NCBI GenBank assembly: GCA_031285245.1
Contig: JAITWN010000165.1
Coordinates: forward strand, 1 to 32,525
From: Chromatiales bacterium
GTDB taxonomy: Bacteria; Pseudomonadota; Gammaproteobacteria; SZUA-140
DNA length: 32,525 bases
Direction: 5' to 3'
The position numbers and the translations under genes are program-made. The notes beneath the pieces were generated by a model, which saw nothing but the letters and a program-made list of their open reading frames with translations, did no database searches and was not told the origin of the DNA. Position 1 is the first letter of the stretch. Every line of letters starts with the position of its first letter. Below are positions 965 to 16,445 of this stretch, one piece after another.

Positions 965-1504
965 ATGCCTCAGGAAACTCCCGCACAGGATCTGCGTAAA
1001 CTCATCAAGTTCCTGATCGCCTCGGCGTTCTACTTTTTTGTTGGAACTGTCCATGGCGTCGCTCAGGTTATTCCTTCAGTGCGTATCTGGCTCGATTCGA
1101 TTGGCAGCCCCTACGGCGGCCCCGGTCACATGATCGATCCCTTAGCCCACGCCCATATCAACGTCGTCGGTGGTGTCGTGCTCTTGTGCATGGCAGTCAC
1201 TTATTACATGCTCACCACGCTGTCGAGGCGACCGATCTGGTCCATGCGGCTGGTCGATCATTCCTTCTGGTGGACCGCGCTCGGCGTTGCCGGCTTCTAT
1301 TCCACGCTGATGACCTTCGGCATTGTCGAAGGCAATATGCTGCTGCGTGGTGAAACCGAGGCTATCTATAAATTACACCGCTTCTACGGCCCCTTCATCG
1401 CTATCATCTCGACCGGGATGGGCGTGGGTTTTTGGCTGTTTTTTGCCAATATTTTCATGACAGCTAAATCCATTTACTCTACCCCCTCGTCCAAAACCGC
1501 ATGA
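965..1504 (+). CDS. Single-repeat (~4 TM) heme-copper oxidase subunit I-like protein
   Basis: AHAHINVVG...YY...RR..WS...FW aligns without gaps to the helix X-XI region of the CcoN in this window. ATG 965 is preferred because the track's TTG 917 lies in the terminator U-tract. Confidence 0.75.
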   Translation: MPQETPAQDLRKLIKFLIASAFYFFVGTVHGVAQVIPSVRIWLDSIGSPYGGPGHMIDPLAHAHINVVGGVVLLCMAVTYYMLTTLSRRPIWSMRLVDHSFWWTALGVAGFYSTLMTFGIVEGNMLLRGETEAIYKLHRFYGPFIAIISTGMGVGFWLFFANIFMTAKSIYSTPSSKTA

Positions 1505-2034
1505 TACTCGAGTGCGGATGCCCGTCGACTTATCCAGACTGGCACCAGCAAGATGTTGATCTGGGCGGACGCTGCATACACCAGGTTTCGGTTCCTATGC
1601 TGCTGCATATGCCGATTGGCTACGATGCACAGCTACGCCGGCAACAGGACAATATCGATCGGCTTGGACTTGAGGAGACCTGGCCCGGTCTAGCGCTGGT
1701 CCGGACCGGCATGCTGCGCGGCAATATCACCCGACTGCTGGAAAACACGGAATCGCCCTCCCATCACGTTTCCTGGCTGCCGCGCCCTTATCAGGTCTAC
1801 GCTCATTTGCATCATGGTGGGCTTGGCAGCGTACGCCCTGCACTGCGCGATATGCAGGCTCGGCTGCTCGATACCGGACGCATGCCTGGAGAATTACTGT
1901 TGGGACACTTGACCTGCACACGATGTGCAGATCAGCGCGGTGGGGAAAAGATACTTCTGCTCAGGCAGTGGCGCGAAAGCGCCGTATTACGCAAACGCAG
2001 AGAAAAAACAACCGGCGCTAGCGTGAAACGCTGA
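1501..2034 (+). CDS. Hypothetical soluble protein with CxC and CxxC motifs (possibly GyrI-like fold)
   Basis: ATGA overlap with the upstream gene; N-terminal ECGCP and C-terminal TCTRC; fold assignment is tentative. Confidence 0.6.
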   Translation: MILECGCPSTYPDWHQQDVDLGGRCIHQVSVPMLLHMPIGYDAQLRRQQDNIDRLGLEETWPGLALVRTGMLRGNITRLLENTESPSHHVSWLPRPYQVYAHLHHGGLGSVRPALRDMQARLLDTGRMPGELLLGHLTCTRCADQRGGEKILLLRQWRESAVLRKRREKTTGASVKR

Positions 2035-2392
2035 CCGGAAACTCCAGCACTCGCTCTTCAAGCCGATCACGCAGATACACATAGAGCGTCTGATCGCCAG
2101 AATCCAGCCGTACTGCCCGCCGATATACACCGATGTTGCCATCCTGAATCGCTTGCTGCCAGGGCGCATCGGGCTTGCTACGCAGAGACACCACCAAATC
2201 TTTGGCCGGTAAGTGATCTGAATTAGTGGCCACGATCATGAATTCATTCATTCCTTGTCGCAGAGGAATCGGGCGAAATTCGATCGTGATATTGATATCA
2301 CCCCATTGCTGAGACGGCAATCTCGACTGATCTCCATCATTACCGCAAGCAAGCAACATCAGCATCACCAGCATGACGACGAAAATCCTCAT
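2018..2392 (-). CDS. Lipoprotein with FixH/YtkA-like beta-sandwich domain (CcoH-like)
   Basis: Start at ATG 2392 (ATGA overlap with upstream stop) gives a signal peptide with lipobox LLAC. Pattern P.P...G.N.F...G.Y resembles YtkA/FixH domains. Located in a cbb3 cluster. Confidence 0.6.
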   Translation of the reverse strand: MRIFVVMLVMLMLLACGNDGDQSRLPSQQWGDINITIEFRPIPLRQGMNEFMIVATNSDHLPAKDLVVSLRSKPDAPWQQAIQDGNIGVYRRAVRLDSGDQTLYVYLRDRLEERVLEFPVSVSR

Positions 2393-2703
2393 GCTGGATC
2401 TCTCGCATCCGCAGCATTGTGCTGGAGATAATCTAGGATCATGCGTAACTGCTCGGGCGGAATCGGCCCAATGCGGGTCGCAATCCTGCGTTGTTGCATA
2501 CGCGAAACGATCGCTGGCCACTCCGACGCAACGCGGCTACCCGACTGAGGCGCCGCGTGGCAACCACCACAATAATAGAGATACGCCTTCTGTGGCTCAT
2601 GCGGCGCATAATTTTCCTGCGCCGACGGAGGAGGTCCTTCAGAGGTACATGCCGCGAGCATCAGCGCACCAACAATTCCGACAACCGCTCTAGCCTGCAT
2701 CAT
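2389..2703 (-). CDS. Monoheme cytochrome c lipoprotein
   Basis: Lipobox LAAC, heme motif CGGCH, and W...V.RM downstream motif providing a candidate axial Met. Confidence 0.8.
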   Translation of the reverse strand: MMQARAVVGIVGALMLAACTSEGPPPSAQENYAPHEPQKAYLYYCGGCHAAPQSGSRVASEWPAIVSRMQQRRIATRIGPIPPEQLRMILDYLQHNAADARDPA

Positions 2704-3161
2704 GGTTTGCCAGAAGCATCCTGCTTCGATTCGCTGCTCTCATCGCTTCTAGACTGCTTGTCGCTATCGAGTCTGCCCGCGATGTTGCTACCGTAGAACT
2801 GAACCATAAAATAAACAAAAGCACCGAAAACCAAGATATACGCGATCGCGGCACCAAAACCCCAATTGACCCACTCGCGCTCATATCCCGGGCGATCGCC
2901 CCAGAACGGAAAACTCAGACCTATCGCCACCAGAAACACCATGACGATAATCGCGATGAACCAGACTGGGACATTGCGCTGCGACTCAGGGATTCGGTCT
3001 ACCAGCTCCCAATCCTCAAGACCGCGCTTGGCGAGGCGCTCTTCATCCGAAGCATAACCAAAGTGATCATCCGGCTGCGCGCCCCACTCACTGTGCACCG
3101 GATCCAGATTGGGAGCGGGCTTCCCGCTTTCATCCTGAGATTGTTTCTCTTCGTCGCTCAT
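2700..3161 (-). CDS. 2-TM membrane protein, short paralog of 10770..11405
   Basis: Shares I.E.....P...FP.WG.RP and W...G....I.Y...F...V...V blocks with the 211-aa protein; translationally coupled on both sides. Confidence 0.75.
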   Translation of the reverse strand: MSDEEKQSQDESGKPAPNLDPVHSEWGAQPDDHFGYASDEERLAKRGLEDWELVDRIPESQRNVPVWFIAIIVMVFLVAIGLSFPFWGDRPGYEREWVNWGFGAAIAYILVFGAFVYFMVQFYGSNIAGRLDSDKQSRSDESSESKQDASGKP

Positions 3162-4501
3162 GCGCCTCCCTCAACCAGATGATGGACGCGGAAACTACGA
3201 CGCTCGCCATCTGGCGCGTTGAGATAAACCAAGAAAGGATGTAGCCCAGGCGCAAGACCAGCATTGATACGCAGATGGATATCCTTGCGACCGGCGCTCA
3301 AAAATTCGGCGTGATCCGCCTCTAACTGATAAGAACCCTCAGGCAGACCTTCGACGCTGACACTAATATCAACTGGCTGATAGAGCTTGCTCGCGATATT
3401 GATGCGGTAATCCCACTCGGCAGCATGCGCAGTCTCCGCGCGGTAAACCGTGTGTCGATAGGCATCATAAGACCACAAGCCCCAAGTGAACAACGCCACG
3501 CCAAACGCTGTCAGCATCGCTGCCCAAGGCGCACGCAACATCACCGAACCAACGTTGCCGCGTCGAGACGTCTGCGCGCCACTCTGCTCTCCGAACCCGA
3601 AACGCAGAAGACTATTGCCGGTCTTGCGCGCGCCGCGCACGGTGCTGCACGCAGTAATGCATTCACCACAGTTGATGCAGGCGTCATAAACCACCGTCTG
3701 CCGCGGATCAATGCCGATGAAGCAGGAGGTTTCGCAGAAATTACAACGCGCGCATTCATCCTGGTGGCTATTGTCATAGGCGATACGCAAGGTCTCACGT
3801 GTCTTAAAAGAATGCTGCCAAACACGATAGACACACATGAATCTGCACCAGAAGTGGCGCACAAACGCGATGTTGACGAACAGTATCAACACGAAGATGG
3901 TGTATATCCAATGCAGAGAGCCCGCGAGACGCTCATCGTGTTGGAACGTTACGAAATGCCACAGTTGTTCTGGAGAATAGAAATAGAACATCGGCACAAA
4001 CGCCGTCACCATTGCCGCGAGGAGAAAAACGCTACCGAGGATCGTCCAGTTGATCCACTTGTTTTTGCCAGAGGAAACTTTAATCGGCTTGCCATCCAGA
4101 CTGACCTCCGCGCGCTTACCAAGCAAGCGGTGCGTCATGTGATTAGCCCACTCAGCGAGCGTATTCTGCGGGCAGGACCAACCACAAAATGCTGTACCAA
4201 CTAGCGAATAAGTCATCACCAGCAGACTGGATAGCGCCAGCCATAAACCAATCACGATGTAGAAATCAGAAAACCAGATCTGCCGATCAAGGACAACGAA
4301 CGCACCATCCACCGGATCAATACGGAACAATCCGGAAACGGGGATCAGGATCGCAAGCAGAACTGTACCGATTTGGACTGCGCGGCGCCGGCTGTGCAAC
4401 TTGCGACCAGCCTTGGCATCCGCGCTGACAATGGGGATTTGCGACAGTGCCTTCGAGTAGTGCATGCCGCAAATACTAGCACGCGACGCATCATCTTTCA
4501 C
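3158..4501 (-). CDS. ccoG: CcoG/FixG-family membrane 4Fe-4S protein (cbb3 accessory)
   Basis: CGWSCP, CRFMC, CARCNFCETSC and CINCGECITAC motifs; multiple TM helices; C-terminal Ig-like segment. Confidence 0.8.
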   Translation of the reverse strand: MKDDASRASICGMHYSKALSQIPIVSADAKAGRKLHSRRRAVQIGTVLLAILIPVSGLFRIDPVDGAFVVLDRQIWFSDFYIVIGLWLALSSLLVMTYSLVGTAFCGWSCPQNTLAEWANHMTHRLLGKRAEVSLDGKPIKVSSGKNKWINWTILGSVFLLAAMVTAFVPMFYFYSPEQLWHFVTFQHDERLAGSLHWIYTIFVLILFVNIAFVRHFWCRFMCVYRVWQHSFKTRETLRIAYDNSHQDECARCNFCETSCFIGIDPRQTVVYDACINCGECITACSTVRGARKTGNSLLRFGFGEQSGAQTSRRGNVGSVMLRAPWAAMLTAFGVALFTWGLWSYDAYRHTVYRAETAHAAEWDYRINIASKLYQPVDISVSVEGLPEGSYQLEADHAEFLSAGRKDIHLRINAGLAPGLHPFLVYLNAPDGERRSFRVHHLVEGGA

Positions 4502-7131
4502 GAACCGGGCACGCTACGCACAGCATCGCCAAGCTGGGTTGCAGTGCGCACTTCACGGTCGAGCGGATTGACCGCAGAAAGCCGGGAAAGATACTGCGCA
4601 GCGAGCTCAGCATCACCGGTATCACGCGCCATTTGCCACAACATCCGCAGCGTATCGGCATGATCAGGGCGTGCGCGTAACAATGCCTCAAGCACCTGAC
4701 GGCGCTGTACAAATGGAACGCCACCGAGACTCGAAAGAACATTGTCTGCCAGAGCGAACCCCACCCAGCGGTCTTGCGGGTTCACCTCGAAAGCCGAGCG
4801 AATGAGCCGCTGTGCATCCGGCATATCGCTATTGATGCTTGCCAACCATGCGCGCAAGGCCAAAGCAGAGCCACTATACCCGCGCTCAAAATGACGCTCG
4901 TCCGCCGCATCAACACCAAGCTCTTTCATAGCGCTAGCTAGCGATGGGCGCTGCTGCAACAGCCACGACAACACCACATCGAGCTCGATACCGCCACCAT
5001 AACGCGCATGGGGCAAGCCGAACTCGATACGCGGCCACCATTCATCCTGCATGGGCCCCTCTGCGATCACCACTCGGCCGCAGTAGCGGCCGAGCCAGGT
5101 CCACAGACCTTCGCCACCGGTTTGATCAGCGCTCTGCGCCGAGCTCTCAGCGGATATTCTTTCCTGGACTGCACGCAGTCGTTCACGTGCATCAACACCA
5201 GACAAGCCGCCGACCATGGCGATGCGAAATCCATCCATGAACATCGCCGCATCTGGGAACACGTGCTCAAAGCTGCGCAAAACCGTTTGCAACGATTCAA
5301 TATCGAATTGATTCAGTGCCAGCCACTGCACAAAAACACCGCCCGGCGCGAGACGTGCGCGAGCACGCTCGAACTGCTGCACGGAAAGCAGCGCACTGCG
5401 CCCCACCAGATCAGGATGAAAAACATCGCCGACGATGACATCAAAGCGAGCGCTACTGACGCTGAGATAACGCCGCGCGTCATCACGCACAATCGTCGCA
5501 TAATCGCCCACATTGCCATTCACCGGCTTAAACCATAAGCGCGCAGCTTCGATCGCCCCTGCGGACAGCTCAACCGCGACACGGTCGAGAGCCGGATACC
5601 CGAGAGAACCCGCTGCCGAGACACCGGTTCCAAGTCCGAGGAAAAGTATCGAGTGTGGATCTGGGTGCAGTAACAATGGCAAGCGTGCCTGATTTTTCTG
5701 CAACTCCACCGCGGCCTGCTCGCTAGACGCATCCATACGCTGCAAATCACTCAGCAGAAGACGCTGCCCATCAGACTGCTCGATCACATGAGTAATCGCC
5801 ATAGCATCTTCATAGCGATAGAGATCATGACTTTCTTGCTGAGCAGGCATAAGTTTGGAAACCGGGGGGAAAACAGCAACTGGCGAGGCGAGCACAAGAA
5901 CAACTGGTAGCGCGAGCCACGTTACTCGTGAAGCCCACACCATTGCAGCTACCAACAGCGCCACCGCACCGACCACTATCGTCGCTGGCGTCCCAATCGT
6001 CGGCACCAGCAACAGCCCTGCAACCAATGCACCCAGCGCCGCACCAATCGAATTGATTCCATACAACAAAGGACCATGCGCACTGCCGCCATAGCGCTGA
6101 CTTAATAACGGCAGCCAGGAACCGAGCACAAAGGTCGCTGGTAGCGTAACAACAGCGAGTATTATTCCCTCGCTCCACAACGCTGCGGCAAGCGTGGAAA
6201 ACTCCTGGCGCTGAGCCCATGAGGAAATCCAAGGCAACGCATAAAGACTTGCGATACCAGTAGCCGCAGCCAGCATTGGCAGTACAGACAACCAATGCGA
6301 ACTCCTCATATGGCGCGCCAACAAACTACCAAGGCCGATGCCAAACAGATAAACCGCAAGGATCACTGCCATCACATATTCGGTGCGCAGCAACACCATA
6401 CCGTAGAGGCGAGTCCAGCCAACTTCGAGCAGAATCGCTGCAGCGCCAACTACGCCATATGCAAATAGCGCCAGCAGTGGTAGCGATAGCGCATCCGCGC
6501 TAGAAAGTGCAGAAGTATGTTCAGTACGCGCCCCACTCCAAGCCAGCAACGCTGCACCTCCCGCGACCAGAAGTCCTAGTGCTGCAATCCAACCGATCGA
6601 TGCCGTCCAACCGAACGCAGGCAGCAGCCACAATGGCAACAAGGCTCCAATCGCTGCGCCACAAGCATTGAACCCATAGAGCCGACCCAGCGCATGCTCG
6701 TCATCCGCGCCCATCGCGCGCAAGATCATGGGGAAGCCTGCCCCCATGGCAATCGCTGGCAATAGCATGAGGAATAGTAGTGCGCCCCCCTGCAAGAACA
6801 ACCAGGCGCTGAGCGACACATCAGGAGCAAAAACAGTCAGCGCTTTTTCCGCGTACCCAAGCAGCCAGGGCAGCACCAAAGCATAGAGCGCGATGGAGCC
6901 TTCGATGAAGGAAAATATCAGTAGCGGCTGCCGGCGACGTCCTAGCCAGCGTATGGCGAGCAAGCTGCCAAGACCAAGGCCCGCCATGAAAGCCGCAATA
7001 GTAACAACCACGCCGAAGATGCTGACTCCAAACTGCATCGACAGCATGCGCGCCCACAACACTTCAAACGCCAGACTAGTCGCACCAGAACCAGCATAGA
7101 GTACCGGAAGCAAGCGTCTCACCATGCTCAC
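4498..7131 (-). CDS. Fused multi-TM membrane domain / spermidine-synthase-like SAM-binding protein
   Basis: Internally duplicated TM region (SLAFEVLWARML / AILLEVGWTRLY; LYGFNACGAAIG / LYGINSIGAALG), then LFLGLGTG, VEL, DDARRYL and FDVIVGD motifs; helical TPR-like C-terminus. Confidence 0.85.
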   Translation of the reverse strand: MSMVRRLLPVLYAGSGATSLAFEVLWARMLSMQFGVSIFGVVVTIAAFMAGLGLGSLLAIRWLGRRRQPLLIFSFIEGSIALYALVLPWLLGYAEKALTVFAPDVSLSAWLFLQGGALLFLMLLPAIAMGAGFPMILRAMGADDEHALGRLYGFNACGAAIGALLPLWLLPAFGWTASIGWIAALGLLVAGGAALLAWSGARTEHTSALSSADALSLPLLALFAYGVVGAAAILLEVGWTRLYGMVLLRTEYVMAVILAVYLFGIGLGSLLARHMRSSHWLSVLPMLAAATGIASLYALPWISSWAQRQEFSTLAAALWSEGIILAVVTLPATFVLGSWLPLLSQRYGGSAHGPLLYGINSIGAALGALVAGLLLVPTIGTPATIVVGAVALLVAAMVWASRVTWLALPVVLVLASPVAVFPPVSKLMPAQQESHDLYRYEDAMAITHVIEQSDGQRLLLSDLQRMDASSEQAAVELQKNQARLPLLLHPDPHSILFLGLGTGVSAAGSLGYPALDRVAVELSAGAIEAARLWFKPVNGNVGDYATIVRDDARRYLSVSSARFDVIVGDVFHPDLVGRSALLSVQQFERARARLAPGGVFVQWLALNQFDIESLQTVLRSFEHVFPDAAMFMDGFRIAMVGGLSGVDARERLRAVQERISAESSAQSADQTGGEGLWTWLGRYCGRVVIAEGPMQDEWWPRIEFGLPHARYGGGIELDVVLSWLLQQRPSLASAMKELGVDAADERHFERGYSGSALALRAWLASINSDMPDAQRLIRSAFEVNPQDRWVGFALADNVLSSLGGVPFVQRRQVLEALLRARPDHADTLRMLWQMARDTGDAELAAQYLSRLSAVNPLDREVRTATQLGDAVRSVPGS

Positions 7132-7199
7132 GCGCGAAGCCCGCTCAGCGCATCACATCTCTCACACCACTTCGCATTGGGAAAAACGCGCACGACAAC

Positions 7200-7574
7200 T
7201 CAGAAGGGAAAAAACCAGACAATTGCCACCACAGCATGAACAATGGCAAGCGTCACGCTGAAGCCAGCAAAGATCGTATGGGCGACAAAGACCTTCTTGC
7301 CATAGATTGCCATTGCAACACCAAGCCCTGCCGCCGTCAGCAAACATATGAGCAGAGCAATCCCCATGACAAAAAGAATGAGATGTTTGCGCTGATCAGG
7401 AATCGCATTGCGCAATTCCGCCGCACGCTGCGCCTCGGTGAATGCTCTGATCACTTGCCCATCGCCGGAAGATTCTGCCGCGAGAACAGTTGCACCAGAG
7501 AAAGAGAAAAATAAAGGCATCATCACCAACACAAGGGTGATACAGCAAAATCTGAGCTGTGCCAAAAAACGCAT
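7200..7574 (-). CDS. Small membrane protein with His residues in or near TM helices
   Basis: N-terminal signal/TM segment plus two TM helices; KHL, VAHT and IVHA; lies in the co-directional operon. Confidence 0.7.
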   Translation of the reverse strand: MRFLAQLRFCCITLVLVMMPLFFSFSGATVLAAESSGDGQVIRAFTEAQRAAELRNAIPDQRKHLILFVMGIALLICLLTAAGLGVAMAIYGKKVFVAHTIFAGFSVTLAIVHAVVAIVWFFPF

Positions 7575-7584
7575 GATGCTGTGC

Positions 7585-7842
7585 TTATCGCTGCTCGGCT
7601 TCGGGGTTCACTTGTTCTTGAGCCCCCTTTTCACTCTCAGGATGACGCAGCGTCCACCAATAAAGCACCGCCATCAAAATAAATGGCACCATCAATATCA
7701 GTAACAGGAAAATGAAGATATACCAGATGGTATCAATGGTGACATGCAGATAGCGGTAGCTATCGAATGCAAAAGCCGGCGCTGGTAATAAAGCCAATAG
7801 AACGAGCGGCCAACGTGACAGGAACTTCAACAACATGATCAT
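7585..7842 (-). CDS. Small membrane protein
   Basis: Signal-peptide-like N-terminus (AFA), one strong TM helix, ATGA overlap with the upstream gene. Confidence 0.7.
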   Translation of the reverse strand: MIMLLKFLSRWPLVLLALLPAPAFAFDSYRYLHVTIDTIWYIFIFLLLILMVPFILMAVLYWWTLRHPESEKGAQEQVNPEAEQR

Positions 7843-8921
7843 TGCTGTTTAGTACTCCGCTCCAGATCGGCCGCGATTCGAAAACCGAAAAAATCCGACG
7901 CATACTGCGGCCAAGAATAATTACGGTGATAATTCGCTGTGGAAAATGGGTCACTCTTCCATGAACCACCGCGCAATACTTTGTAGCTTCCCTCTACTGG
8001 CACCAAATCGACAACTTTCATCGCTTCATCAAGCGGCGTGGTTGCCTTGGCGACATGTCCTTGGAAATATTCCGGCGATGCATCGTTACCGGGATAAGGC
8101 TGAAAACTGTCAGCCGTCCACTCACTGACATTTCCAGCCATATCCATGACACCAAACGGGCTGCCGCCTTCAGGGAACTTGGTCACTTCACTCGTCGCAC
8201 CGACGGTATAGTAAGTATTGAGGCGAGCAGTATCCATCTCATCGCCCCAAGGCCAGCGACGACCATCGGTGCCGCGGGCGGCTTTTTCCCATTCAGCCTC
8301 TCGCGGCAAACGCCCGCCTGCCCAAGCAGCATAGGCACCAGCGTCATGCCAGGAAACCATCGTGACGGGATGCAGCGCCTGCCCCTGGCGAAACTTCCCG
8401 CCATCCCAATTGAGTGGAGGACGGTGCCCAGTGGCAGCGACAAACCGTGCATATTGTGCATTGGTCACTGGATACTTGCTGATCTCGAACGCCGCGAGCG
8501 AAACGCGATGCTGCGGAGTGTCTTGTACAGCGCTGCGAGAACGATCGGTACCCATCAGAAACTCGCCAGCGGGAATGGTAATGAGCGTATCAATTTCAGC
8601 CCATTGCTCCGCGCTCAAAAGCGCTTCTGCCTCAGCCACCGTATAAGAGTTATACGCAGCAGTGGGGTGCTCATGCTTTTCATGACGAGACAGTTCTTCT
8701 CCGGAGGCGCGTAGGCGCGAGCCCACTTCAGAGAGATCATAGCCCGCTTTCGAGCGCATCTCGTCCATACGCTTGGAGCCGATCTGCAGAATGTGGAGGC
8801 TTCCCCCCACCATAGCCAATGAAATGCAGGTAATGATCGTCGCAGCCAGATAACGCTTACGGCGTTGACGCACACTCTCATCGTTCACGCTTGAAACCCC
8901 GGGCGGATAACTCACACTCAT
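7839..8921 (-). CDS. Membrane-anchored formylglycine-generating-enzyme (FGE-sulfatase/SUMF1/NirV) family protein
   Basis: IPAGEFLMG, PVTNAQY, HPVTMVSW, RLPREAEWEKAARG, DMAGNVSEW, RGGSW and GFR motifs; N-terminal TM helix. Confidence 0.9.
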   Translation of the reverse strand: MSVSYPPGVSSVNDESVRQRRKRYLAATIITCISLAMVGGSLHILQIGSKRMDEMRSKAGYDLSEVGSRLRASGEELSRHEKHEHPTAAYNSYTVAEAEALLSAEQWAEIDTLITIPAGEFLMGTDRSRSAVQDTPQHRVSLAAFEISKYPVTNAQYARFVAATGHRPPLNWDGGKFRQGQALHPVTMVSWHDAGAYAAWAGGRLPREAEWEKAARGTDGRRWPWGDEMDTARLNTYYTVGATSEVTKFPEGGSPFGVMDMAGNVSEWTADSFQPYPGNDASPEYFQGHVAKATTPLDEAMKVVDLVPVEGSYKVLRGGSWKSDPFSTANYHRNYSWPQYASDFFGFRIAADLERSTKQQ

Positions 8922-9385
8922 CCGCTTTTTTCCCCAGAATCAGGATGATCAGATTTACTGCGATAGACCTCTTCTCGCGGCAACCGCCCATAGGTACGTT
9001 TGATAATAATTTCACCAAAGACGCCACCGAAAGCTGCCGCCTCAACCGCCAAGATCACAAACATTATCCAGAAAGGGAAATACAGAAGCTGAGTACCAAA
9101 TGGGGGTTCAGTAAAATAGAGATAGTTGGCATAGCCGATGCTGCGCACGATCAACGGCGGAAAATAGCATAACCATTTTCCACCCAGACCAAAAATCATT
9201 GCTACTACGACGCCAGAAATCAGCGGGACAACAAATATATTGACCATCCACAGCGCTGAAAAAGTATCAAGACCTCGCCACAGTTCAATATTCACTCCAA
9301 GTAAAATATCGCCAAGGTAATTGACAGCACAGCCAGCAAGCAGTGCGATAAAACCTGTGAGATTACGCTTGAATTGCTTGTTCAT
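8918..9385 (-). CDS. Hypothetical ~4-TM membrane protein
   Basis: Hydrophobic helices; ATG 9385 overlaps the upstream TAA (TAATG), so it is preferred over the track start. Confidence 0.75.
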   Translation of the reverse strand: MNKQFKRNLTGFIALLAGCAVNYLGDILLGVNIELWRGLDTFSALWMVNIFVVPLISGVVVAMIFGLGGKWLCYFPPLIVRSIGYANYLYFTEPPFGTQLLYFPFWIMFVILAVEAAAFGGVFGEIIIKRTYGRLPREEVYRSKSDHPDSGEKSG

Positions 9386-9873
9386 TAGCAGTCGTTCTCG
9401 CTTCCTGTCAGTTTGGCGCAACGCGCACGGCGAACTTCATCCAGATCCCAATCGCGAACCTTGAGACTGGCCATATACGCCGCAAGTGTGCGTCGCTCAC
9501 TCTCAGGAAGGTGGGCAAAAGAAGGCATTTGATATTCTTCTTTCAATCGCGAAGGAAGAATTTGCTGGGGATTCTGCGCGGAGAAATATTCAAAAAACCA
9601 TTCCTCACTGTGGATGGATCCCATGCCATCCAATGCGGGCGCTGGCACAGCTTGCATAAGGTTGCGCACTGTCCATAGCGTGTGGCATTCCTTGCAGTTC
9701 TGCTGCCGGTAAATTTCCCCAGCCTCGTGAAGTAAAGCAGCGGACGCCGTCGTGTAAAAAGGAATTTCACGATCGTGTTCGCTGCTCTCCCGCTGACGCA
9801 GAAAGTTCCAGAGCATTGCCCCCAGAACAACTACTGCGATGAGGAGATAAATCCTCTTCTCACCTGTCCTCAT
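9385..9873 (-). CDS. Membrane-anchored monoheme cytochrome c (CcoO/NorC-like)
   Basis: N-terminal TM helix, CKECH, APALDGMG...EW and MPSF (axial Met). Confidence 0.85.
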   Translation of the reverse strand: MRTGEKRIYLLIAVVVLGAMLWNFLRQRESSEHDREIPFYTTASAALLHEAGEIYRQQNCKECHTLWTVRNLMQAVPAPALDGMGSIHSEEWFFEYFSAQNPQQILPSRLKEEYQMPSFAHLPESERRTLAAYMASLKVRDWDLDEVRRARCAKLTGSENDC

Positions 9874-10153
9874 GCTGCTTCGCGTGCTGCGCCTTCTCCT
9901 GCGCCTTCTCGCGCAGAAATTCTTCGCGGCGCTTAACCTGCTGTGCTAATACCTCACGGCTTTTGGCATACTCCTCAGGAGACATTTTGTCCTTGTCGTT
10001 CTCATCGAAGACCAGGTATTTGATGTCTTCATCAAACTGCTCATTCTTATAAGCCCAGCGCAAACCGTACATGGCAGCAAAAATAATTAACCCACCAGCG
10101 ACCAGCCATATATAAATGGTCCATCCGTCTGGAAGTGATTGTAAGAAATTCAT
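9860..10153 (-). CDS. ccoS: CcoS/FixS-like cbb3 maturation protein with charged C-terminal extension
   Basis: Single TM helix followed by WAYKNEQFDED, similar to the CcoS W...GQFDD motif; SD GGAGG upstream. Confidence 0.65.
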   Translation of the reverse strand: MNFLQSLPDGWTIYIWLVAGGLIIFAAMYGLRWAYKNEQFDEDIKYLVFDENDKDKMSPEEYAKSREVLAQQVKRREEFLREKAQEKAQHAKQHEDR

Positions 10154-10165
10154 GATTGCCTCCTC

Positions 10166-10498
10166 CTAGAAAAGTCGGCCATATAACAATTGTAAAGCAC
10201 CAAACCCAACCGCAACAAACATACCGGCGACTATCATGAGAAATAATAGCTTCTCTCCAAACTTCAACCCGCCGCTCGCTTTGGAACTGAGGAAAAAACG
10301 AAACACGATAGCCGCGAAAACCGTAACCCCAATTAACATGAAGAAAAAGATGCCAATGCTGAATCGGTAACTTTCCATACCCTCGATCGTCCAATAGGAC
10401 GACGGGCCGCTCGCTTGCGCTTGTTGCTGTACCGTAATTACCGCGGAGTCCAATCGCGCCAGCAGTGACTGAAGAGGTTCGAACAGAGCCAATTTCAT
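10166..10498 (-). CDS. Hypothetical 2-TM membrane protein
   Basis: Two hydrophobic helices linked by GGLKFGEK; co-directional with neighbours; start codon uncertain. Confidence 0.7.
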   Translation of the reverse strand: MKLALFEPLQSLLARLDSAVITVQQQAQASGPSSYWTIEGMESYRFSIGIFFFMLIGVTVFAAIVFRFFLSSKASGGLKFGEKLLFLMIVAGMFVAVGFGALQLLYGRLF

Positions 10499-10546
10499 GG
10501 TGAGAAAGGAAACCAGAAAAGAAGAAATAAACCTTCAGGGGTATAT

Positions 10547-10580
10547 AAAAAAACGATGCCGCTTTTTCAAGCGGCATCGT
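10547..10580 (-). terminator. Rho-independent terminator after the core oxidase genes
   Basis: Minus strand ACGATGCCGCT-tgaaaa-AGCGGCATCGT followed by a T run. Confidence 0.85.
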
Positions 10581-10610
10581 CTTGGTTCACACAGGAAACG
10601 CTAACCAACC

Positions 10611-10742
10611 TTACTCGTTGTCCCGGATGTGCGGAGCGCCTTTGTCATATTTATCTACAAAAAAGCTGTAAATAAAAGGCACAATGAACACAACAATAAT
10701 CGGGAGCAAGAGCACAAGCGGAGGATTATCGACATCAATCAT
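10611..10742 (-). CDS. 43-aa single-TM microprotein MIDVDNPPLVLLLPIIVVFIVPFIYSFFVDKYDKGAPHIRDNE (not in ORF track; CcoQ-like size)
   Basis: Translated by hand. SD GGAGAG upstream; fills the gap between the 211-aa gene and the terminator. Confidence 0.75.
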   Translation of the reverse strand: MIDVDNPPLVLLLPIIVVFIVPFIYSFFVDKYDKGAPHIRDNE

Positions 10743-10769
10743 GACTGTTAACTCTCCAGGTTATATTAA

Positions 10770-11405
10770 TCAATGACCATGATGAACTGGCTGCCAACGA
10801 TAGTTGGGCAGGCGCTTCACCGCAATCATTACTGCCAGACAAAAGTAGGTTACGTAGAAGATATCGATGGTGTAGCCTTTGTCCCACCAGGGCTGCTTAC
10901 GCTCACGCGTACCATCCGCCTTCCAGTTACCCTCGAAGTTCGCCAGCAATACTTTGTAGCCGACGATGGTGTACTCTTCGAGATCCACCCGCGAGTTTTG
11001 CAACTCAATGATCTGATCTTTGACCAGGCGCAATTCGTTCATCGACAATGGATGGCGAACCTGCAGGGCTTCATACTTCGATTGGCCTTCACGAACAATC
11101 CTTACGATCTCAGCCATTGCTGCCTGATCACCGCCCGCTGCCTGCGCAGCTTGAACACGAGGACTATCCATCGCCGCCACATATTCAGCGTAAATTGCGG
11201 CCTGCGGACGTTGGCCCCAGAGCGGGAATGTCATCAGAAACGCGCTGATGATAGTCAGTCCCAGCAGCCATACCACAGGACGCGGCAGACGATTGTTGTC
11301 TTCGGTAATGCCGCCAAGCCCTTCAGCCTCCCACAGCTTGCGGGCCTTATCATTTTGCTCCTCATCAGAAAGACTGAAGAGCGGGTTGTCAAATTTCCAG
11401 GCCAT
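10770..11405 (-). CDS. Heme-less 2-TM protein with CcoP/FixP N-terminal-like anchor
   Basis: GITEDNNRLPR followed by a TM helix resembles the FixP_N GIeE.dNplP motif; no CxxCH; directly downstream of ccoO; strong SD. Confidence 0.8.
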   Translation of the reverse strand: MAWKFDNPLFSLSDEEQNDKARKLWEAEGLGGITEDNNRLPRPVVWLLGLTIISAFLMTFPLWGQRPQAAIYAEYVAAMDSPRVQAAQAAGGDQAAMAEIVRIVREGQSKYEALQVRHPLSMNELRLVKDQIIELQNSRVDLEEYTIVGYKVLLANFEGNWKADGTRERKQPWWDKGYTIDIFYVTYFCLAVMIAVKRLPNYRWQPVHHGH

Positions 11406-11420: not shown

Positions 11421-12371
11421 TTATTTCAGACTCAGAACAAAGTCAATCAGGTAACGCGCATCGCTCTTAGAAGCGGGCTCAGGCACTTCCGGCGGATAAA
11501 TCCGCTTGCCGGAGGCAAAGTCGCTATAGTCAGCGCGCCACTGGTTGTAGTTGATGACATTGCCACTCGCATCCTTCTCACCCCACAGATAGTCATAGCG
11601 GGGCATGATGGAGTGCGGTTGCACCAAGCGCGGATTGAAGAAGTGCATCATCATCCATTCGCGTGAAGAGTTACGTGAACCGACATGCAACAGATCAGGC
11701 GCTTTACGATCCGAACCAAACGCAGTTGGTGATTCGCTGTTGAAGTCACCGAGACGTGGCGGCGCACCAAACGACTGCCAGTCCTGGGTCTGCTCAGGCA
11801 ACAGCGTGTGGCACCACCAGCAGCCTTCGCGCACGAACATAATCTTGCCCGAGCCGACGTGCTGCGTGTCTTTATCGCTGACCGCCTTCAGAACCATATC
11901 CGGCGTCCAACCATGGGTCGCGGTGGCGTTTTCGATGTAATGAATGGGCTCACCATTCCACCGCCCCTCAGTCACCACAAAAACCGCACCTTGAGCTTGA
12001 TTAGCTTGACCAATCTTGCCTTTATCCAAGCTCAGATCTTCAACCCCCTTACCCATGATTCGGGGATGCCGGATCGAACTGGTGAAAGGTACGCCTGCGT
12101 CGTAAACATAGGCATAGGTCTCGTCGATCGGCGCGCCGGTTTTTGGATCGTTCCGGAGTACAACCGTCAGAGGCTTGTTATCTCCATGCAGGAACGGATC
12201 TTCAACCGAGAAACCACCCACACGACCATACATCAAGCCTTTTCTCAGACCCATTTCGGTTGAGGACACCTGCACAATGTCCAGGCTGGGCATGTACAGT
12301 GTGATCATCATTGATCCACCGAGCGCGATACCGAACAATCTCGCGCCAACTTTATATTCGCGGAATGCCAC
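11421..12371 (-). CDS. ccoO: cbb3-type cytochrome c oxidase subunit II (CcoO) with extra N-terminal periplasmic segment
   Basis: REGCWWCHT, GSDRKAPDLLHVG and HFFNPRLVQPHSIMPRY are CcoO signatures; GTG start with SD GGAGG. Confidence 0.88.
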   Translation of the reverse strand: MAFREYKVGARLFGIALGGSMMITLYMPSLDIVQVSSTEMGLRKGLMYGRVGGFSVEDPFLHGDNKPLTVVLRNDPKTGAPIDETYAYVYDAGVPFTSSIRHPRIMGKGVEDLSLDKGKIGQANQAQGAVFVVTEGRWNGEPIHYIENATATHGWTPDMVLKAVSDKDTQHVGSGKIMFVREGCWWCHTLLPEQTQDWQSFGAPPRLGDFNSESPTAFGSDRKAPDLLHVGSRNSSREWMMMHFFNPRLVQPHSIMPRYDYLWGEKDASGNVINYNQWRADYSDFASGKRIYPPEVPEPASKSDARYLIDFVLSLK

Positions 12372-12412
12372 GTCTGATTCCTCCCCTAAATATTATGCTT
12401 GCGGATATCCGA

Positions 12413-13819
12413 TTAGCGCTCGTACGCAATCTCGTGGGGCAGACGGCCCGCCGGGATTACAGTACCTTCGCGCGCAGTCATCCACATGTTGTAGAGCCAG
12501 ACGAGATTTCCGGTGAAAACCATGGTGCCGCCCACCCAACGCGCGATCATATACGGATGCTCCGCAATCACGACGTCAATGTAAGGAACCTCATAGATCT
12601 TACCTGCGCCCTGGATCAAACCTGCAATGGTCATCGAGATCCAGTAGATCGTGAAACCGATCAGCAGGAACCAGAAATGGAAGTTGGCCAGTGCGAGCGA
12701 ATACAACTTGCGGCGCATGATGGTCTGCAAGCCGTAGTAAACTGCAGCTGCTTCCAAGAAGGTGGAGAAGCCAAGCAGCGCAAGGTGAGCATGCGCCACG
12801 ATCCAGCCAGTACCATGGATATACCAGTTGATCGCACGGGTCTGCTGGAAACCACCCTGCATGTTGAGCGGAATCGCCATCAGCACGCCGGTGATGGTGA
12901 ATTTGATCTCAACGTTGTCGACAAAGAAACGCCACTTGCCCGTCATGGTGAGCAGCAGGTTCGACACGAAAGCGATTGCCGGCACCAGAATCAACACACC
13001 TTCCACTGAAGCGAATGACTTGAGCCACTCCGGCAACGGAGAAGACATCAAATGATGCGCAGCAGGCGTGGAGTAGAACACCACCACTGACCAGAAGTGC
13101 AAGTGACCGATACGGTGTGAATAGAGCGGATTACCCGTAATCTTCGGCACTGTATAGTAAGCAATAGCTGCAGCAACTGGTGTAATCCACAAACCGAGCA
13201 CATTGTGTGCGAACCACCAAGTCAGATACGCCTCGGTGAGCCCGGTGAGCTGGAAGTACTCCGGCAGGTTACCTACGAACAGCACGATGAACAGCATAAA
13301 GACCGCAGAAGCGAAGAACCAGTTGGTAGTGTAGATACCCTGAGTACGACGCTTGATAACCGTCATCCAAACGTTGATGCCGAGCGGCACAATGACACCA
13401 AACAGGATGATGAGGTCAATGAACCAAGGGAAGTCGGAGTATTCACGGCCAGAACTCATACCCGACCAAAGACACGTCAATGCTATCGACAAACCTGCAT
13501 TCCAGACGAAACAGTTCCAAACACCGAGTTTTTCAGACCAGAGCTTGGTATTACCGAGGGCTGGCGTGATGTACATCATTGCCATCGCGAAAGCCATCGA
13601 AATCCAGCCGAAAATCACGGCCATCACATGCACCTGACGCATGTGCCCAAACGAGAACAGTTCCGAACCAGTAACAAAGTCAGGGAACGCAAGCTTGGCG
13701 GCATTGAACGAGCCAAGACCCGTCCCAATAACAAACCAAACGATGGAAGAAATGCCAAAATATACGGCGGATGAACCCCTTGGGATATCCTCGGTTTTGG
13801 CGAACAGGTACTTGAACAT
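12413..13819 (-). CDS. ccoN: C-family (cbb3-type) heme-copper oxidase subunit I, divergent
   Basis: All six His ligands present (RQVH, WWFAHN, AAHH, AHAH); helix VII Tyr in YSTPAAHH has the C-family spacing; REY, YYTVPK and LYS..HFW motifs. Confidence 0.93.
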   Translation of the reverse strand: MFKYLFAKTEDIPRGSSAVYFGISSIVWFVIGTGLGSFNAAKLAFPDFVTGSELFSFGHMRQVHVMAVIFGWISMAFAMAMMYITPALGNTKLWSEKLGVWNCFVWNAGLSIALTCLWSGMSSGREYSDFPWFIDLIILFGVIVPLGINVWMTVIKRRTQGIYTTNWFFASAVFMLFIVLFVGNLPEYFQLTGLTEAYLTWWFAHNVLGLWITPVAAAIAYYTVPKITGNPLYSHRIGHLHFWSVVVFYSTPAAHHLMSSPLPEWLKSFASVEGVLILVPAIAFVSNLLLTMTGKWRFFVDNVEIKFTITGVLMAIPLNMQGGFQQTRAINWYIHGTGWIVAHAHLALLGFSTFLEAAAVYYGLQTIMRRKLYSLALANFHFWFLLIGFTIYWISMTIAGLIQGAGKIYEVPYIDVVIAEHPYMIARWVGGTMVFTGNLVWLYNMWMTAREGTVIPAGRLPHEIAYER

Positions 13820-13912
13820 CGGACTTACCTCCCCCCTAAAGCGCTATTTTCGTAATCCCTGCCTGCATTTTCCGTGGCCTAAATATATAGAGCCCGCGGA
13901 AGCAATGCTTAA

Positions 13913-14008
13913 TCAGGAATGATCGCCCGGCATCAGCAAATACCAAGCAAACCACATGCTCGAAAACGCGAGCATAATACAACTGATTGCTGCAATCATA
14001 GCCAACAT
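13913..14008 (-). CDS. 31-aa single-TM microprotein MLAMIAAISCIMLAFSSMWFAWYLLMPGDHS (not in ORF track)
   Basis: Translated by hand. Strong SD GAGGAGG; lies between the 91-aa gene and ccoN. Confidence 0.7.
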   Translation of the reverse strand: MLAMIAAISCIMLAFSSMWFAWYLLMPGDHS

Positions 14009-14068
14009 TGCTACCGCCTCCTCGGATACTGGTGAACTCGCGGACAGACCCGAATACTGAACTCGGAA

Positions 14069-14344
14069 TTAATGGGCCGACTTTTCGAGTTCGCCGTGGC
14101 GCTTGAGCGCGAGCATCACGATAATCGTGAATGCCACGCCGAACACGATCATGCACCAGTTCATGAAGCCCTGGAACGTGACCACGTTATAGGCATCGAG
14201 CCCTATGCCACCCCAATCATCGAAAGGACCGCGGCCCAGCGCGCACATAAGTGCCGCACCGAACACGCTGCCATTGCCCATGCCGGTGAGACCGCCACCG
14301 ATGACGGCTACCCAGAAGGTTTTACTGTAGGTGAGACGATTCAT
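14069..14344 (-). CDS. Gly-rich 2-TM membrane protein, first gene of the ccoN operon
   Basis: SD GGAGGGGAG; two hydrophobic segments; GGGLTGMGNGSVFG. Confidence 0.8.
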   Translation of the reverse strand: MNRLTYSKTFWVAVIGGGLTGMGNGSVFGAALMCALGRGPFDDWGGIGLDAYNVVTFQGFMNWCMIVFGVAFTIIVMLALKRHGELEKSAH

Positions 14345-14534
14345 TAACTCCCCTCCGCAGGACTCTGAAATCCGGACATCCTTTCGGCACGCGTGATGTT
14401 ATGACTTATCGCGCCGGTATTCTGGCTTGCTCGATTAACAACTCGAGATAGTGCCAGATGACTACAAAGACGACCTTACTATATTTGTGGCTACAGATGC
14501 TTGCATAGCGATTTCCCCTCGTCAAGCCTGGATA

Positions 14535-14548
14535 TTGATACTTCTCAA
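14535..14548. promoter_or_regulatory. FNR/ANR-type binding site
   Basis: TTGAT-ACTT-CTCAA matches 9/10 of TTGAT-N4-ATCAA, in the divergent intergenic region upstream of the ccoN operon. Confidence 0.65.
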
Positions 14549-14713
14549 TGCAGACTTAATTTTAAAGAAAATCTGATGCCACTAATAATTTTGCACTGCA
14601 GAGAATATCAACCCTGCTGGCCGTCTGCAAGTGTTGAACAGCATGATTATTGAATATTGCAAGCGCATCTATCATGCTTTGATCTTCAGGCTCGAAGTGA
14701 TGTTGGAGAACAC

Positions 14714-14911
14714 GTGAAAGAACTAATTTTTTATGGAATCGTCGGCGTATCCGCGCTTTTCATCCTGGGATTTTCGATACACATGCTGATTGGCGGACTG
14801 GTTGCGCCTGAAACCGAGCAACTCATCATTGTCGCAGCTTGTGTAAGCGGTATAGGCGCCATGGCCTATATGGTGTGGGATGTGCGCAAACGGCGGCGGC
14901 AGCCGCATTGA
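14714..14911 (+). CDS. 65-aa 2-TM membrane protein
   Basis: GTG 14714 preceded by SD GGAGA; two TM helices and an Arg-rich tail. Confidence 0.7.
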   Translation: MKELIFYGIVGVSALFILGFSIHMLIGGLVAPETEQLIIVAACVSGIGAMAYMVWDVRKRRRQPH

Positions 14912-14912
14912 T

Positions 14913-15368
14913 TCACTTGAAGACGCTCAGCTTACCCAAGATTTCCTGATACATCTTCAGATCGCCAAATTGTCCGCGGTGGAAAACATACTGACGACGC
15001 TGTCCGGATAAATCCATTCCACTCAAACCAAATGACTTTCCAGCGTAGTCCGGGAAAAAACGCACGTCTTTTACTAGTTCGACACGATCGCCGCTGCGCA
15101 AACCGACAGTCACTCGCTCTCGGTCACAACTGAGCGATAACGGCGAAGAAGGCAGTAGCATCAATCGACCAGACAGCACTCGATTAGCGCCGGCAAAGGT
15201 GAAGAAGAATCCCATGAAGAAAAGCAGGTAAGCCCAACTCTGAGAGGAGCTGAACCAAAGCTTGGCGCCAGTTGCGAGTAGGAAAATCACGGTGGGGACA
15301 TATAACAACAAGTCCCACACCATTCCTCTTTTATCCTGAGACAGGAGATAAGGCAAAGGCTCTTGCAT
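14913..15368 (-). CDS. Hypothetical protein with 2 TM helices and a small soluble beta domain
   Basis: Last gene of the 17096-14913 unit, starting 4 nt after the upstream stop. Confidence 0.75.
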   Translation of the reverse strand: MQEPLPYLLSQDKRGMVWDLLLYVPTVIFLLATGAKLWFSSSQSWAYLLFFMGFFFTFAGANRVLSGRLMLLPSSPLSLSCDRERVTVGLRSGDRVELVKDVRFFPDYAGKSFGLSGMDLSGQRRQYVFHRGQFGDLKMYQEILGKLSVFK

Positions 15369-15372
15369 AAGA

Positions 15373-15900
15373 TCAACCGACCTGCTGCCCCCGATCTTCC
15401 TGCCGCAATTGCACCGACATCACTCGTGTGAGCGTGGCATCCAGCTCATCGTAAAGCAATCTGCCCGCACGCTTGAATTGCACGACTTGGTTGCGATCGA
15501 TGACAAAAGTCCAAGGGTCCCCCATAACCTGGAAGGCTGTAAACGCCTCGGGATTGCGATATTGGTCCATGTGCAGGAAGAGTACATCATTCTGGTACTT
15601 TTCCATGATGCCCTTGAGCATTTGCAACTGCACATCGCAGACTGTGCAATGGCCTGGCGTTGCGAATTCAAGTACGACAGGCTTACCTGCCGCCAGCGCT
15701 TTATCAAGAGAGTACTGGTACATCCTTTCGTCAGGATAACGATAGGTCGTGATGAGACTGAAATCACCGCCAACATCAGCGAGAGTCTTGGTAGTTAGGG
15801 AAGGCGCGACAGAGCCTACGGTGACGGACTTTTGTACATCACACGCTGTCAGTGAGAACACCGCCAGGATACCCGCTAACGTCAAAAAACGTTTGCTCAT
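15373..15900 (-). CDS. Thioredoxin-fold lipoprotein (CxxC)
   Basis: Lipobox LTAC; KPVVLEFATPGHCTVC; GDPWTFVID (cis-Pro region); ATGA overlap at 15897-15900. Confidence 0.85.
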   Translation of the reverse strand: MSKRFLTLAGILAVFSLTACDVQKSVTVGSVAPSLTTKTLADVGGDFSLITTYRYPDERMYQYSLDKALAAGKPVVLEFATPGHCTVCDVQLQMLKGIMEKYQNDVLFLHMDQYRNPEAFTAFQVMGDPWTFVIDRNQVVQFKRAGRLLYDELDATLTRVMSVQLRQEDRGQQVG

Positions 15901-16445
15901 CCCTTGCGCCCCCACCCTGGATCTTTTTCCCAACCCATGCAGGTACGAAAAATATTGTAGCCCCAGATCATATTAGCCAGCAGAACCAGAGATCCGAAAA
16001 TACCCAGCGCCCCCATTAGTGGACGGATCATTTTTTCCACTTCATCCGGCGCGTGCAACAAACTCTGCGTTCCGCTGATTATTCCAGCCGTAGTAAACAT
16101 GATTACCATTCCAAGCAAGCCTGTGTTGTGAATCCAAAAATGGACTTTCACCAGACGCAGGCTATGAATTTCGCGTCTTACTAGGCGCGGAATGAAATAA
16201 TACACAGCACCAAAAATCGCCATCTCCACCCAACCCAGCAAGTTGACGTGAGTGTGAGCGCGCACGATCAACTCTCCGCCCATTCCTGCGCGCCCATGAA
16301 CAAATTGGCGAATCTCTGGAATACCGCCCATCAGCGCGCCCCAGGAAAAACCGATGATGCTATATATGATGCAGGCATAGACAAACAGCAGCGTATAACG
16401 TGTGTATTCCTTGTCGATCGCCCAGGGTTCATTGACGCTGCTCAT
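15897..16445 (-). CDS. Single-repeat (~4 TM) heme-copper oxidase subunit I-like protein
   Basis: AHTHVNLLGW...AVYYFIP...RR..HS...HFW aligns without gaps to CcoN helices X-XI; ATG 16445 has SD AGGAG. Confidence 0.8.
   Translation of the reverse strand: MSSVNEPWAIDKEYTRYTLLFVYACIIYSIIGFSWGALMGGIPEIRQFVHGRAGMGGELIVRAHTHVNLLGWVEMAIFGAVYYFIPRLVRREIHSLRLVKVHFWIHNTGLLGMVIMFTTAGIISGTQSLLHAPDEVEKMIRPLMGALGIFGSLVLLANMIWGYNIFRTCMGWEKDPGWGRKG

Follow-up and report, generated by a model that had tools for sequence, protein, structure and literature searches.

Free-standing single-repeat homologues of the oxidase subunit CcoN at both ends of a respiratory gene cluster conserved in iron-oxidising and electroautotrophic Proteobacteria

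Results

The 32,525-nucleotide contig JAITWN010000165.1 of a Chromatiales bacterium (assembly GCA_031285245.1), referred to here over its full length as the window, carries two short genes whose products resemble a single four-helix repeat of CcoN, the catalytic subunit of cbb3-type oxidases. The family A gene lies on the plus strand at 965..1504 and encodes a protein of 179 amino acids (aa) with four helices, as judged from the open reading frame (ORF), its COX1 match and an AlphaFold2 (AF2) model. The family B gene occupies 15897..16445 on the minus strand and encodes 182 aa from an ATG at 16445, again with a COX1 match and an AF2 model. An original prediction made from the bare sequence had placed both ORFs at these positions, where we find them, without giving a strand for B. 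On the plus strand the B interval is full of stop codons; on the minus strand there is a 190-aa frame starting from a GTG, within which homologues and a GGAG six bases upstream mark the ATG at 16445 as the start. Residue numbers of family B follow the 190-aa reading (P0002) and not the 182-aa form. Both genes are coupled to their neighbours, as had been proposed, the stop codon of each overlapping the start of the next gene in an ATGA. The prediction was silent on the minus strand of B, on the one large cluster that the two genes share and on their earlier description in print.

The gap-free block of 42 residues that had been aligned between A, B and the window's own CcoN (12413-13819) was reproduced exactly, with 21 columns invariant among the three proteins. 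In a hidden Markov model (HMM) search, the check that the prediction had called for, both proteins match positions ~306-411 of the 436 positions of Pfam COX1 (PF00115). B scores above the cut-off of 34.8 bits (49.9 bits, E 2.9e-13) and A slightly below it (32.8 bits, E 4.6e-8), the latter reaching 36.5 bits in a genome scan in which neighbours in frame were included; 25 of 25 family-A members match the profile at E<=0.01, with a best E of 1.1e-11. By sequence, both proteins belong to the COX1 family, but over a part of the profile only. The same holds for the ccoN model TIGR00780, which is matched at positions ~304-460 only (A 36.1 bits, B 50.0 bits) and whose cut-off of 583.15 is not reached. 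B also resembles DUF2871 (PF11070), a family of small polytopic proteins, over residues 32-153, but stays below its cut-off (20.5 bits, E 6e-4; cut-off 27.4) and is not a member; A has no match to this family. The papers found on DUF2871 concern staphylococci or gene design and, in the parts available, report no function.

Comparison with hhalign links A to B at 98.4%, A to CcoN residues 342-451 at 95.9% and B to CcoN residues 334-448 at 98.0%. The AF2 model of B (predicted local distance difference test, pLDDT, 78.9) has four long helices (20-49, 64-97, 104-135 and 141-177), as does that of A (pLDDT 85.2), which bears out the expected ~4 transmembrane (TM) segments per protein; a crude hydropathy scan gives two strongly hydrophobic segments in each. 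The best Foldseek matches of both models in the Protein Data Bank (PDB) are cbb3 CcoN chains, with a probability of 1.00 and a root-mean-square deviation (rmsd) of 1.8 Å over 119 columns for B against 3mk7_A, and TM scores of 0.65-0.69 over ~181 columns for A. Together, the COX1, hhalign and Foldseek matches exceed chance by a wide margin and show that A and B are free-standing homologues of one four-helix CcoN repeat, closest to repeat 3 (helices IX-XII), and so support the proposal that they are single-repeat relatives of subunit I.

Run on CcoN of P. stutzeri (3mk7_A), the family-B profile matches all three pseudo-repeats, the third best (342-460, 34.5 bits; 208-246, 21.0 bits; 15-107, 10.2 bits), and the family-A profile shows the same repeat behaviour on 8smr_E. 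The HxH motif of B aligns with H345/H347 of 3mk7_A, and its first histidine aligns also with H60 in repeat 1; B's second histidine is offset by one residue from H207 in repeat 2. From the 2010 CcoN structure, we take H60 and H347 to be the ligands of heme b, H345 that of heme b3, and H207, H257 and H258 those of CuB. Alignments with the window CcoN and with 3mk7_A confirm that both A and B keep the helix-X HxH, which amounts to two of the six metal-ligand histidines; neither has a counterpart of the helix-VI histidine or of the helix-VII HH pair. All of these (helix-VI histidine, HH and HxH) are present in the full-length CcoN of the window. A and B also have no counterpart of the cross-linked tyrosine, and align to the last third of CcoN only, so that each is a single unit without the O2-reducing centre; having no CuB ligand, they cannot be oxidases. 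The description of the two proteins as 'mini-oxidase-like' is not supported, since none of the three CuB histidines nor the cross-linked tyrosine has a counterpart in either of them.

With P. stutzeri CcoN (PDB 3MK7, chain A) they share the sequence and fold of helices IX-XII, the helix-X HxH and a YY...P...YS..L...HFW loop motif. They differ from it in having four helices (in 179 and 182 aa) instead of the twelve-helix core of a functional subunit I, in lacking the CuB site and in what each has gained: E82, H114 and C33 in B, where C177 lies beyond the end of the 3mk7_A alignment, and the near-invariant periplasmic loop GSPYGGPGHMIDP in A.

Twelve residues (C33, Y36, H72, H74, N76, E82, S103, H110, H114, N115, N166 and N172) are invariant in 194 of 194 distinct B sequences, with C177 present in 191 of the 194; the corresponding set in 121 of 121 A sequences comprises Q34, R40, D44, H55, D58, H62, H64, S93 and N162, with H30 present in 116. 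The HxH motif, whose conservation among orthologues the prediction had made a point at issue, is thus retained in every member of both sets. Among 25 B sequences, eleven consecutive residues of the second TM helix, N76-F86, are invariant, meaning that every face of this helix is constrained, as expected of a buried, cofactor-flanked helix.

The alignments are confined to the C-terminal third of CcoN, and this much could also be expected if A and B were recent truncation fragments or pseudogenes of a duplicated ccoN. That explanation is refuted by length, selection and taxonomic spread, and we consider it virtually impossible. Of 931 candidates for family B, 768 are relatives at E<=1e-3, and of 1006 for family A, 933 are relatives; the best 120 of each are of the same, single-unit length (168-186 aa and 160-214 aa, respectively). 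In a length-unrestricted search with the B profile, 14 proteins matched at E<=1e-30, all of them of at most 211 aa save one triple-repeat protein of 413 aa, and a search for longer forms of A returned no longer (fused) relative, which is weak evidence. Both genes are under purifying selection, with nonsynonymous differences (pN) of 0.11-0.27 against synonymous ones (pS) of 0.66-0.81, the latter saturated (five orthologues per family), and the families range over three proteobacterial classes. The view that the two genes are not decay fragments is borne out by these data, as hundreds of same-length relatives exist and near relatives are all of single-unit length.

A and B are obligatory components, one at each end, of a cluster of ~17 kb around a divergent CcoNO oxidase, which is common to Gamma-, Beta- and Zetaproteobacteria that oxidise Fe(II) or live as electroautotrophs. 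Scanning species-representative genomes gave 564 stretches with a family-B relative, of which the 80 best were used for locus comparisons; these are metagenome-assembled genomes (MAGs) labelled as Gammaproteobacteria, Chromatiales, Thiotrichales, Ca. Tenderia, Zetaproteobacteria/Mariprofundaceae and Gallionella. When each count is restricted to loci whose length covers the gene concerned, the anchored monoheme cytochrome c upstream of B is present in 80/80 loci, the thioredoxin-like gene downstream of B in 76/76, the adjoining 151-aa gene in 70/70, CcoN in 51/54, the FGE-sulfatase-domain gene in 43/44 and the diheme cytochrome in 63/70. Identity to the window across loci is 62-77% for B and 59-83% for CcoO.

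In the window, the cluster runs on the minus strand from a diheme cytochrome of the c4 type (17240..18013), through a monoheme cytochrome c that is anchored in the membrane at its N-terminus and lies directly upstream of B (16503..17096), to B, a thioredoxin-like lipoprotein with an HCTxC motif (15373..15900) and a membrane-anchored 151-aa protein of no named family (14913..15368), the last gene of the B operon, for which an atlas look-up returned unnamed clusters only. Beyond an 84-aa gene on the opposite strand follow CcoN (12413..13819), a CcoO-like monoheme subunit with a long N-terminal extension (11421..12371), a FixP_N-like protein (10770-11405), a conserved 97-aa protein with a single TM segment (9860-10153), the second anchored monoheme cytochrome c (9385-9873), a 167-aa protein, a conserved, membrane-anchored FGE-sulfatase-domain protein (7839-8921), two small proteins and a conserved, polytopic spermine-synthase-like/TPR protein of 877 aa with ~14 TM segments (4498-7131). 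Both here and in Gallionella locus L078 the order continues with CcoG, a CcoG-like polyferredoxin in the window (3158-4501), two small proteins and finally A with a 177-aa gene, this pair standing on the opposite strand and convergent with the CcoG group. Within this minus-strand part of the cluster (2018..11405), the 167-aa protein after the second anchored cytochrome is polytopic, the two small proteins before the 877-aa protein are membrane proteins, and the two after CcoG are of 153 and 167 aa. Many small membrane proteins are conserved within the cluster.

We searched the same 201 class-level genomes for A (E<=1e-58), B (E<=1e-20) and CcoN. A, B and a CcoN of 72-100% identity all occur in the same 14 genomes, and none of the ~39 other genomes whose CcoN match is at most 33% identical has A or B. 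In two further genomes (G045 and G152), in which B was not found, the CcoN is 56-58% identical and has directly upstream of it a divergent gene resembling A, here called A'. The A' proteins (L099, L100) are 38-40% identical to A and show H30->Q and H99->V, while GH.IDPLAHAH is kept, HxH included; in L099, one of these two divergent loci, A' comes after two anchored cytochrome c genes and before CcoN. Family A was also found in 5/5 genomes of Zetaproteobacteria, Gallionella and Tenderia reached through their B loci. In the window's own genome (87.7% complete) the COX1 matches are A, B and CcoN only, the cluster being the sole heme-copper oxidase locus found there. This strict three-way co-occurrence of A, B and one CcoN clade is a new element of the present work.

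New as well are the translationally coupled partners of the two proteins. The partner of A (1501..2034, plus strand), a 177-aa protein with no predicted TM segment whose start codon overlaps the A stop codon, follows A in 12/13 family-A loci. It is PF20603-like, with a weak match to that family and PF20603 clusters as atlas neighbours (0.94 and 0.93); its structural neighbours, which are leads only, are GyrI-like (TM score 0.65) and SOUL heme-binding (0.60) folds. An N-terminal CxCP...P..W and a TCxxC near the C-terminus are invariant among 13 homologues. The partner of B, the thioredoxin-like lipoprotein, starts at Met12 of its long ORF, where the start codon overlaps the stop codon of B, and carries a conserved FATP.HCT.CD motif in its thioredoxin-like domain. 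The partners lie on opposite sides of the membrane, that of A (a 4-Cys GyrI/SOUL-like protein) in the cytoplasm and that of B (an HCxxC lipoprotein) in the periplasm.

The CcoN around which the cluster is built is a divergent, full-length C-family protein of 468 aa, scoring 225.1 bits against the TIGR00780 cut-off of 583.15 and ~30% identical to ordinary CcoN, within a clade that is 72-95% conserved internally. It has an invariant intramembrane glutamate of its own, E356 (54/54), in helix X, one turn from the position of B's invariant E82. The N-terminal extension of CcoO measures ~170 residues. The cluster has no diheme CcoP, and its FixP_N-like protein, of 211 aa, carries no CxxCH and so no heme. 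The two anchored monoheme cytochromes are paralogous to each other (100%, E 1.5e-56) and may stand in place of CcoP; comparison of the two with CcoO gave probabilities of 1.9% and 20.9%, neither significant. The match of the 97-aa protein to FixS/CcoS is weak (E 0.002, 19.5 bits, cut-off 23.1); this protein is a candidate for the CcoS-like maturation factor of the cluster. The window's own genome, 87.7% complete, yielded neither FixH nor SCO1/SenC; a P-type ATPase is present in it. The idea that another of the cluster's small membrane proteins might be a hidden third repeat unit was rejected, as hhalign gave probabilities of at most 2.6%, except for 30.8% over 25 residues in the FixP_N-like protein.

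Several further ORFs deserve mention. The 84-aa ORF between the B operon and ccoN (14657-14911, plus strand) has two TM segments and is kept in 68/80 loci. The ORFs 10047-10577 and 13836-14156, both on the minus strand, are matched by homologues in only 2/80 loci and overlap or border on conserved ones; the two are probably spurious. The minus-strand stretch 25380-31913 holds a regulatory block of the ordinary rpoN-linked kind (sigma-54, a PTS EIIA(Ntr)-like protein, HPr kinase, RapZ, EIIA-man and enzyme I) that is unrelated to A and B.

The wider family was sampled through the 150 best representatives for the B profile. Of these, 46 are of single-unit size, 39 of them with an HxH..G motif. 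Nine proteins of 390-437 aa (P0253, P0262, P0263, P0267, P0270, P0280, P0291, P0309 and P0328; loci L110, L111 and L113) instead have at least three HxH motifs but lack an HH pair and hence a CuB site. Identity between the internal repeats is 34-48% in the five examined, compared with 29-35%, over short stretches only, for the repeats of the window CcoN. Each repeat of these twelve-helix proteins is B-like, with HxH followed by a GW/GF motif; they differ from B in forming one fused chain, in their distance (E 4e-36 and weaker) and in their genomic context. Two bear the name 'cbb3-type cytochrome c oxidase subunit I [Ca. Hydrothermarchaeales archaeon]', and the neighbours of P0263 encode a CGGC-domain protein, an FeS_assembly_P protein and a DUF438-hemerythrin-PAS_10 protein. 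In a tree of repeat units built by a quick method (48 rows, 162 columns), the backbone is unresolved; A with A' and B form separate, well-supported clades, and A with A' groups with CcoN repeat 3 at 82% SH-aLRT only.

Discussion

The A/B pair has already been noted in print, and the window is another instance of it rather than a new observation. In the available parts of a preprint on Tenderiales, ALP51724.1 and ALP51744.1 of Ca. Tenderia electrophaga are labelled 'truncated CcoN' (bioRxiv 10.1101/2022.05.06.490989, Fig. 2B), the region is described as being conserved among certain freshwater iron oxidisers, and 'a sort of alternative complex IV' is speculated upon. The gene order in its legend (diheme cytochrome, monoheme cytochrome, truncated CcoN, thioredoxin ... 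CcoN, CcoO ... CcoG ... truncated CcoN) is that of the window and of the related loci (80/80, 76/76 and 51/54, as above), the gene at the position of the FGE-sulfatase protein being called there a 'serine threonine protein kinase'. From this order, and from three Tenderia sp. MAG loci (L021, L023, L036) that hold the same cluster as the window with B at 65-69% identity, we infer that ALP51724.1 and ALP51744.1 belong to families B and A. In the same parts, the preprint gives names only and contains no repeat mapping, residues, partners or co-occurrence counts.

The diheme protein at 17240..18013 is probably the Cyc1 homologue of the iron-oxidiser literature. As far as the available text of these sources extends, the region that holds the Cyc1 gene is reported to be syntenic with Mariprofundus and a 'complex IV-2' to be very highly expressed (PMC5371394), related genes of Ca. 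Tenderia are reported among the most highly expressed, and 'proximal' and 'distal' cbb3 forms have been distinguished in iron oxidisers (PMC8788666, PMC7029218, PMC10734462). The literature found contains, to the same extent, no functional or structural study of the A/B proteins, its sole mention of them being the label 'truncated CcoN', in agreement with the earlier statement that single-unit homologues are known but functionally uncharacterised. What is new here is the repeat-level mapping, the invariant residue sets, the partners, the three-way co-occurrence and the symmetric triple-HxH relatives.

As to function, we tentatively favour the reading that A and B are heme-b-carrying oligomeric accessory subunits of the oxidase system rather than catalysts, with B fed by the cytochrome c encoded upstream of it. 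Heme binding through HxH in an oligomer is plausible. Each unit would bind a b-type heme through HxH near the periplasmic face, in a site closed by a partner helix, so that the unit would work as an oligomer: histidines spaced by two residues along a helix point to different sides, just as in CcoN, where each belongs to a heme of its own, and a lone four-helix arc could presumably not close either heme site. In a COX1-like ring, a low-spin heme would sit between a unit's second histidine and the first histidine of the adjacent unit, in the manner of H347 and H60 at heme b of CcoN. B would take its electrons from the anchored monoheme cytochrome directly upstream, which would in turn be fed by the Cyc1-type diheme cytochrome, and A would be tied to its cytoplasmic 4-Cys GyrI/SOUL-like partner. 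That fused three-unit proteins exist agrees with a functional form of three units. In favour of this reading stand the homology and fold, the repeat mapping, the conserved HxH, the linkage to a single oxidase clade and the redox setting, with an anchored cytochrome upstream of B in 80/80 loci and A' placed between such cytochromes and CcoN in L099; the gene context as a whole hints at redox work as well as at assembly.

A more specific and decidedly doubtful version holds that the free-standing units form three-unit rings, homo- or hetero-trimeric, with a low-spin b heme held between the second histidine of one unit and the first of the next in each of three inter-unit pores, that is, a copper-free 'tri-heme cytochrome b' whose single-chain form would be the archaeal fused triple-HxH proteins. 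Several points weigh against the accessory heme subunits that we favour. The monomer model of B, once its superposition on CcoN is extended to 166 columns, deviates by an rmsd of 8.4 Å, and the triple-repeat proteins are remote relatives and no orthologues; in the poorly resolved tree, the repeats of each such protein group together. Since every heme would sit close to the periplasmic face, heme alone does not account for A being coupled to a cytoplasmic protein; the maturation-type genes nearby (CcoG, the weak CcoS-like ORF and the thioredoxin-like lipoprotein) fit assembly equally well; and the invariant transmembrane ladder of B (H72/H74, E82, C33, H114/H110, C177) is not needed by a pure heme carrier. 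A complex prediction for A, B and two hemes, run without controls, scored 0.13/0.12 against a mark of 0.32 and counts neither for nor against this reading.

Given CcoG, the CcoS-like ORF, the thioredoxin-like lipoprotein and the SOUL-like partner, an account nearly as good as the favoured one, if on the whole unlikely, is that A and B are dedicated assembly scaffolds that hold heme b, and possibly copper, transiently and pass it to the nascent divergent CcoN. The cytoplasmic SOUL/GyrI-like protein would then supply A with heme, and the HCxxC lipoprotein in the periplasm would act together with B. Paralogues acting as scaffolds are known from NifEN versus NifDK and from the one-helix Hlip/OHP proteins versus LHC; in both, a reduced or duplicated cofactor-binding copy holds the cofactor for the enzyme or beside it, and by analogy these systems could model such an assembly role, though they have no homology to A or B. 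The strict co-occurrence with one CcoN clade only agrees with this role, as do the convergent position of A to the CcoG group, the predicted fold of its partner (GyrI-like/SOUL-like, TM score 0.65/0.60), the translational coupling of B to a thioredoxin-fold lipoprotein with a conserved HCTxC, the weak CcoS-like ORF (19.5 bits against 23.1) and the failure to find SCO1/SenC or FixH in the 87.7% complete genome. Assembly factors, however, usually drift faster than core subunits, and B matches CcoO, a core subunit, in conservation (62-77% versus 59-83%). Furthermore, A and B form distinct families that are retained everywhere, each with a partner of its own, the SOUL likeness is no more than a lead at the level of fold, and HxH relatives of single-unit and triple-unit form, without a CuB site, exist in Hydrothermarchaeales MAGs, where a role as CcoN chaperone is not obvious.

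The ladder in B could alternatively mark an ion conduit for copper, another metal or protons, which would deliver Cu(I) or H+ to the HCxxC lipoprotein and from there to the oxidase; we regard this as improbable. In the AF2 model, the helix limits suggest a depth order from C33, H110, H114 and C177 on the cytoplasmic side through E82 in mid-membrane to H72/H74 on the periplasmic side. These residues are invariant in 194/194 sequences (C177 in 191/194), E82, H114 and C33 have no counterpart in the window CcoN and E82 and H114 none in 3mk7_A, and both the coupling of B to the HCTxC lipoprotein and the lack of a Sco/SenC hit in the 87.7% complete genome would fit. On the other hand, the ladder is read from helix limits and not from proximity of the residues in space, family A has no such ladder, the P-type ATPase in the genome means that a CcoI/CopA route may exist, and cation export against the membrane potential needs an energy source, of which none is evident. 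We give similarly little credence to a structural or regulatory role in which A and B, free of any cofactor, would dock on CcoN as subunits, for example as substitutes for the missing CcoP/CcoQ helices. Such a role would suit a cluster that lacks the diheme CcoP, has a FixP_N-like protein of 211 aa without CxxCH and conserves many small membrane proteins; yet the heme-ligand histidines and many polar intramembrane residues are invariant over hundreds of sequences, which is hard to explain without a ligand.

The cluster is the sole heme-copper oxidase locus found in this genome, related genes of Ca. Tenderia are reported among the most highly expressed, and the invariant A and B occur only with this one oxidase clade; the respiration of neutrophilic iron oxidisers and electroautotrophs therefore probably depends on them. 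To learn whether their task is to carry heme, to deliver cofactors or to conduct ions would close a gap in the Cyc2-Cyc1-oxidase model of how iron is oxidised. The two families bear both on the respiration of these organisms and on the origin of heme-copper oxidases: with single- and triple-unit relatives that keep heme ligands and have no CuB site, the old idea that subunit I arose by triplication of a four-helix heme protein becomes testable in extant proteins. If the units do form copper-free three-unit rings, they would represent a new membrane redox module beside the divergent cbb3 oxidase of iron oxidisers and a living model of the heme-copper oxidase ancestor before the CuB site arose.

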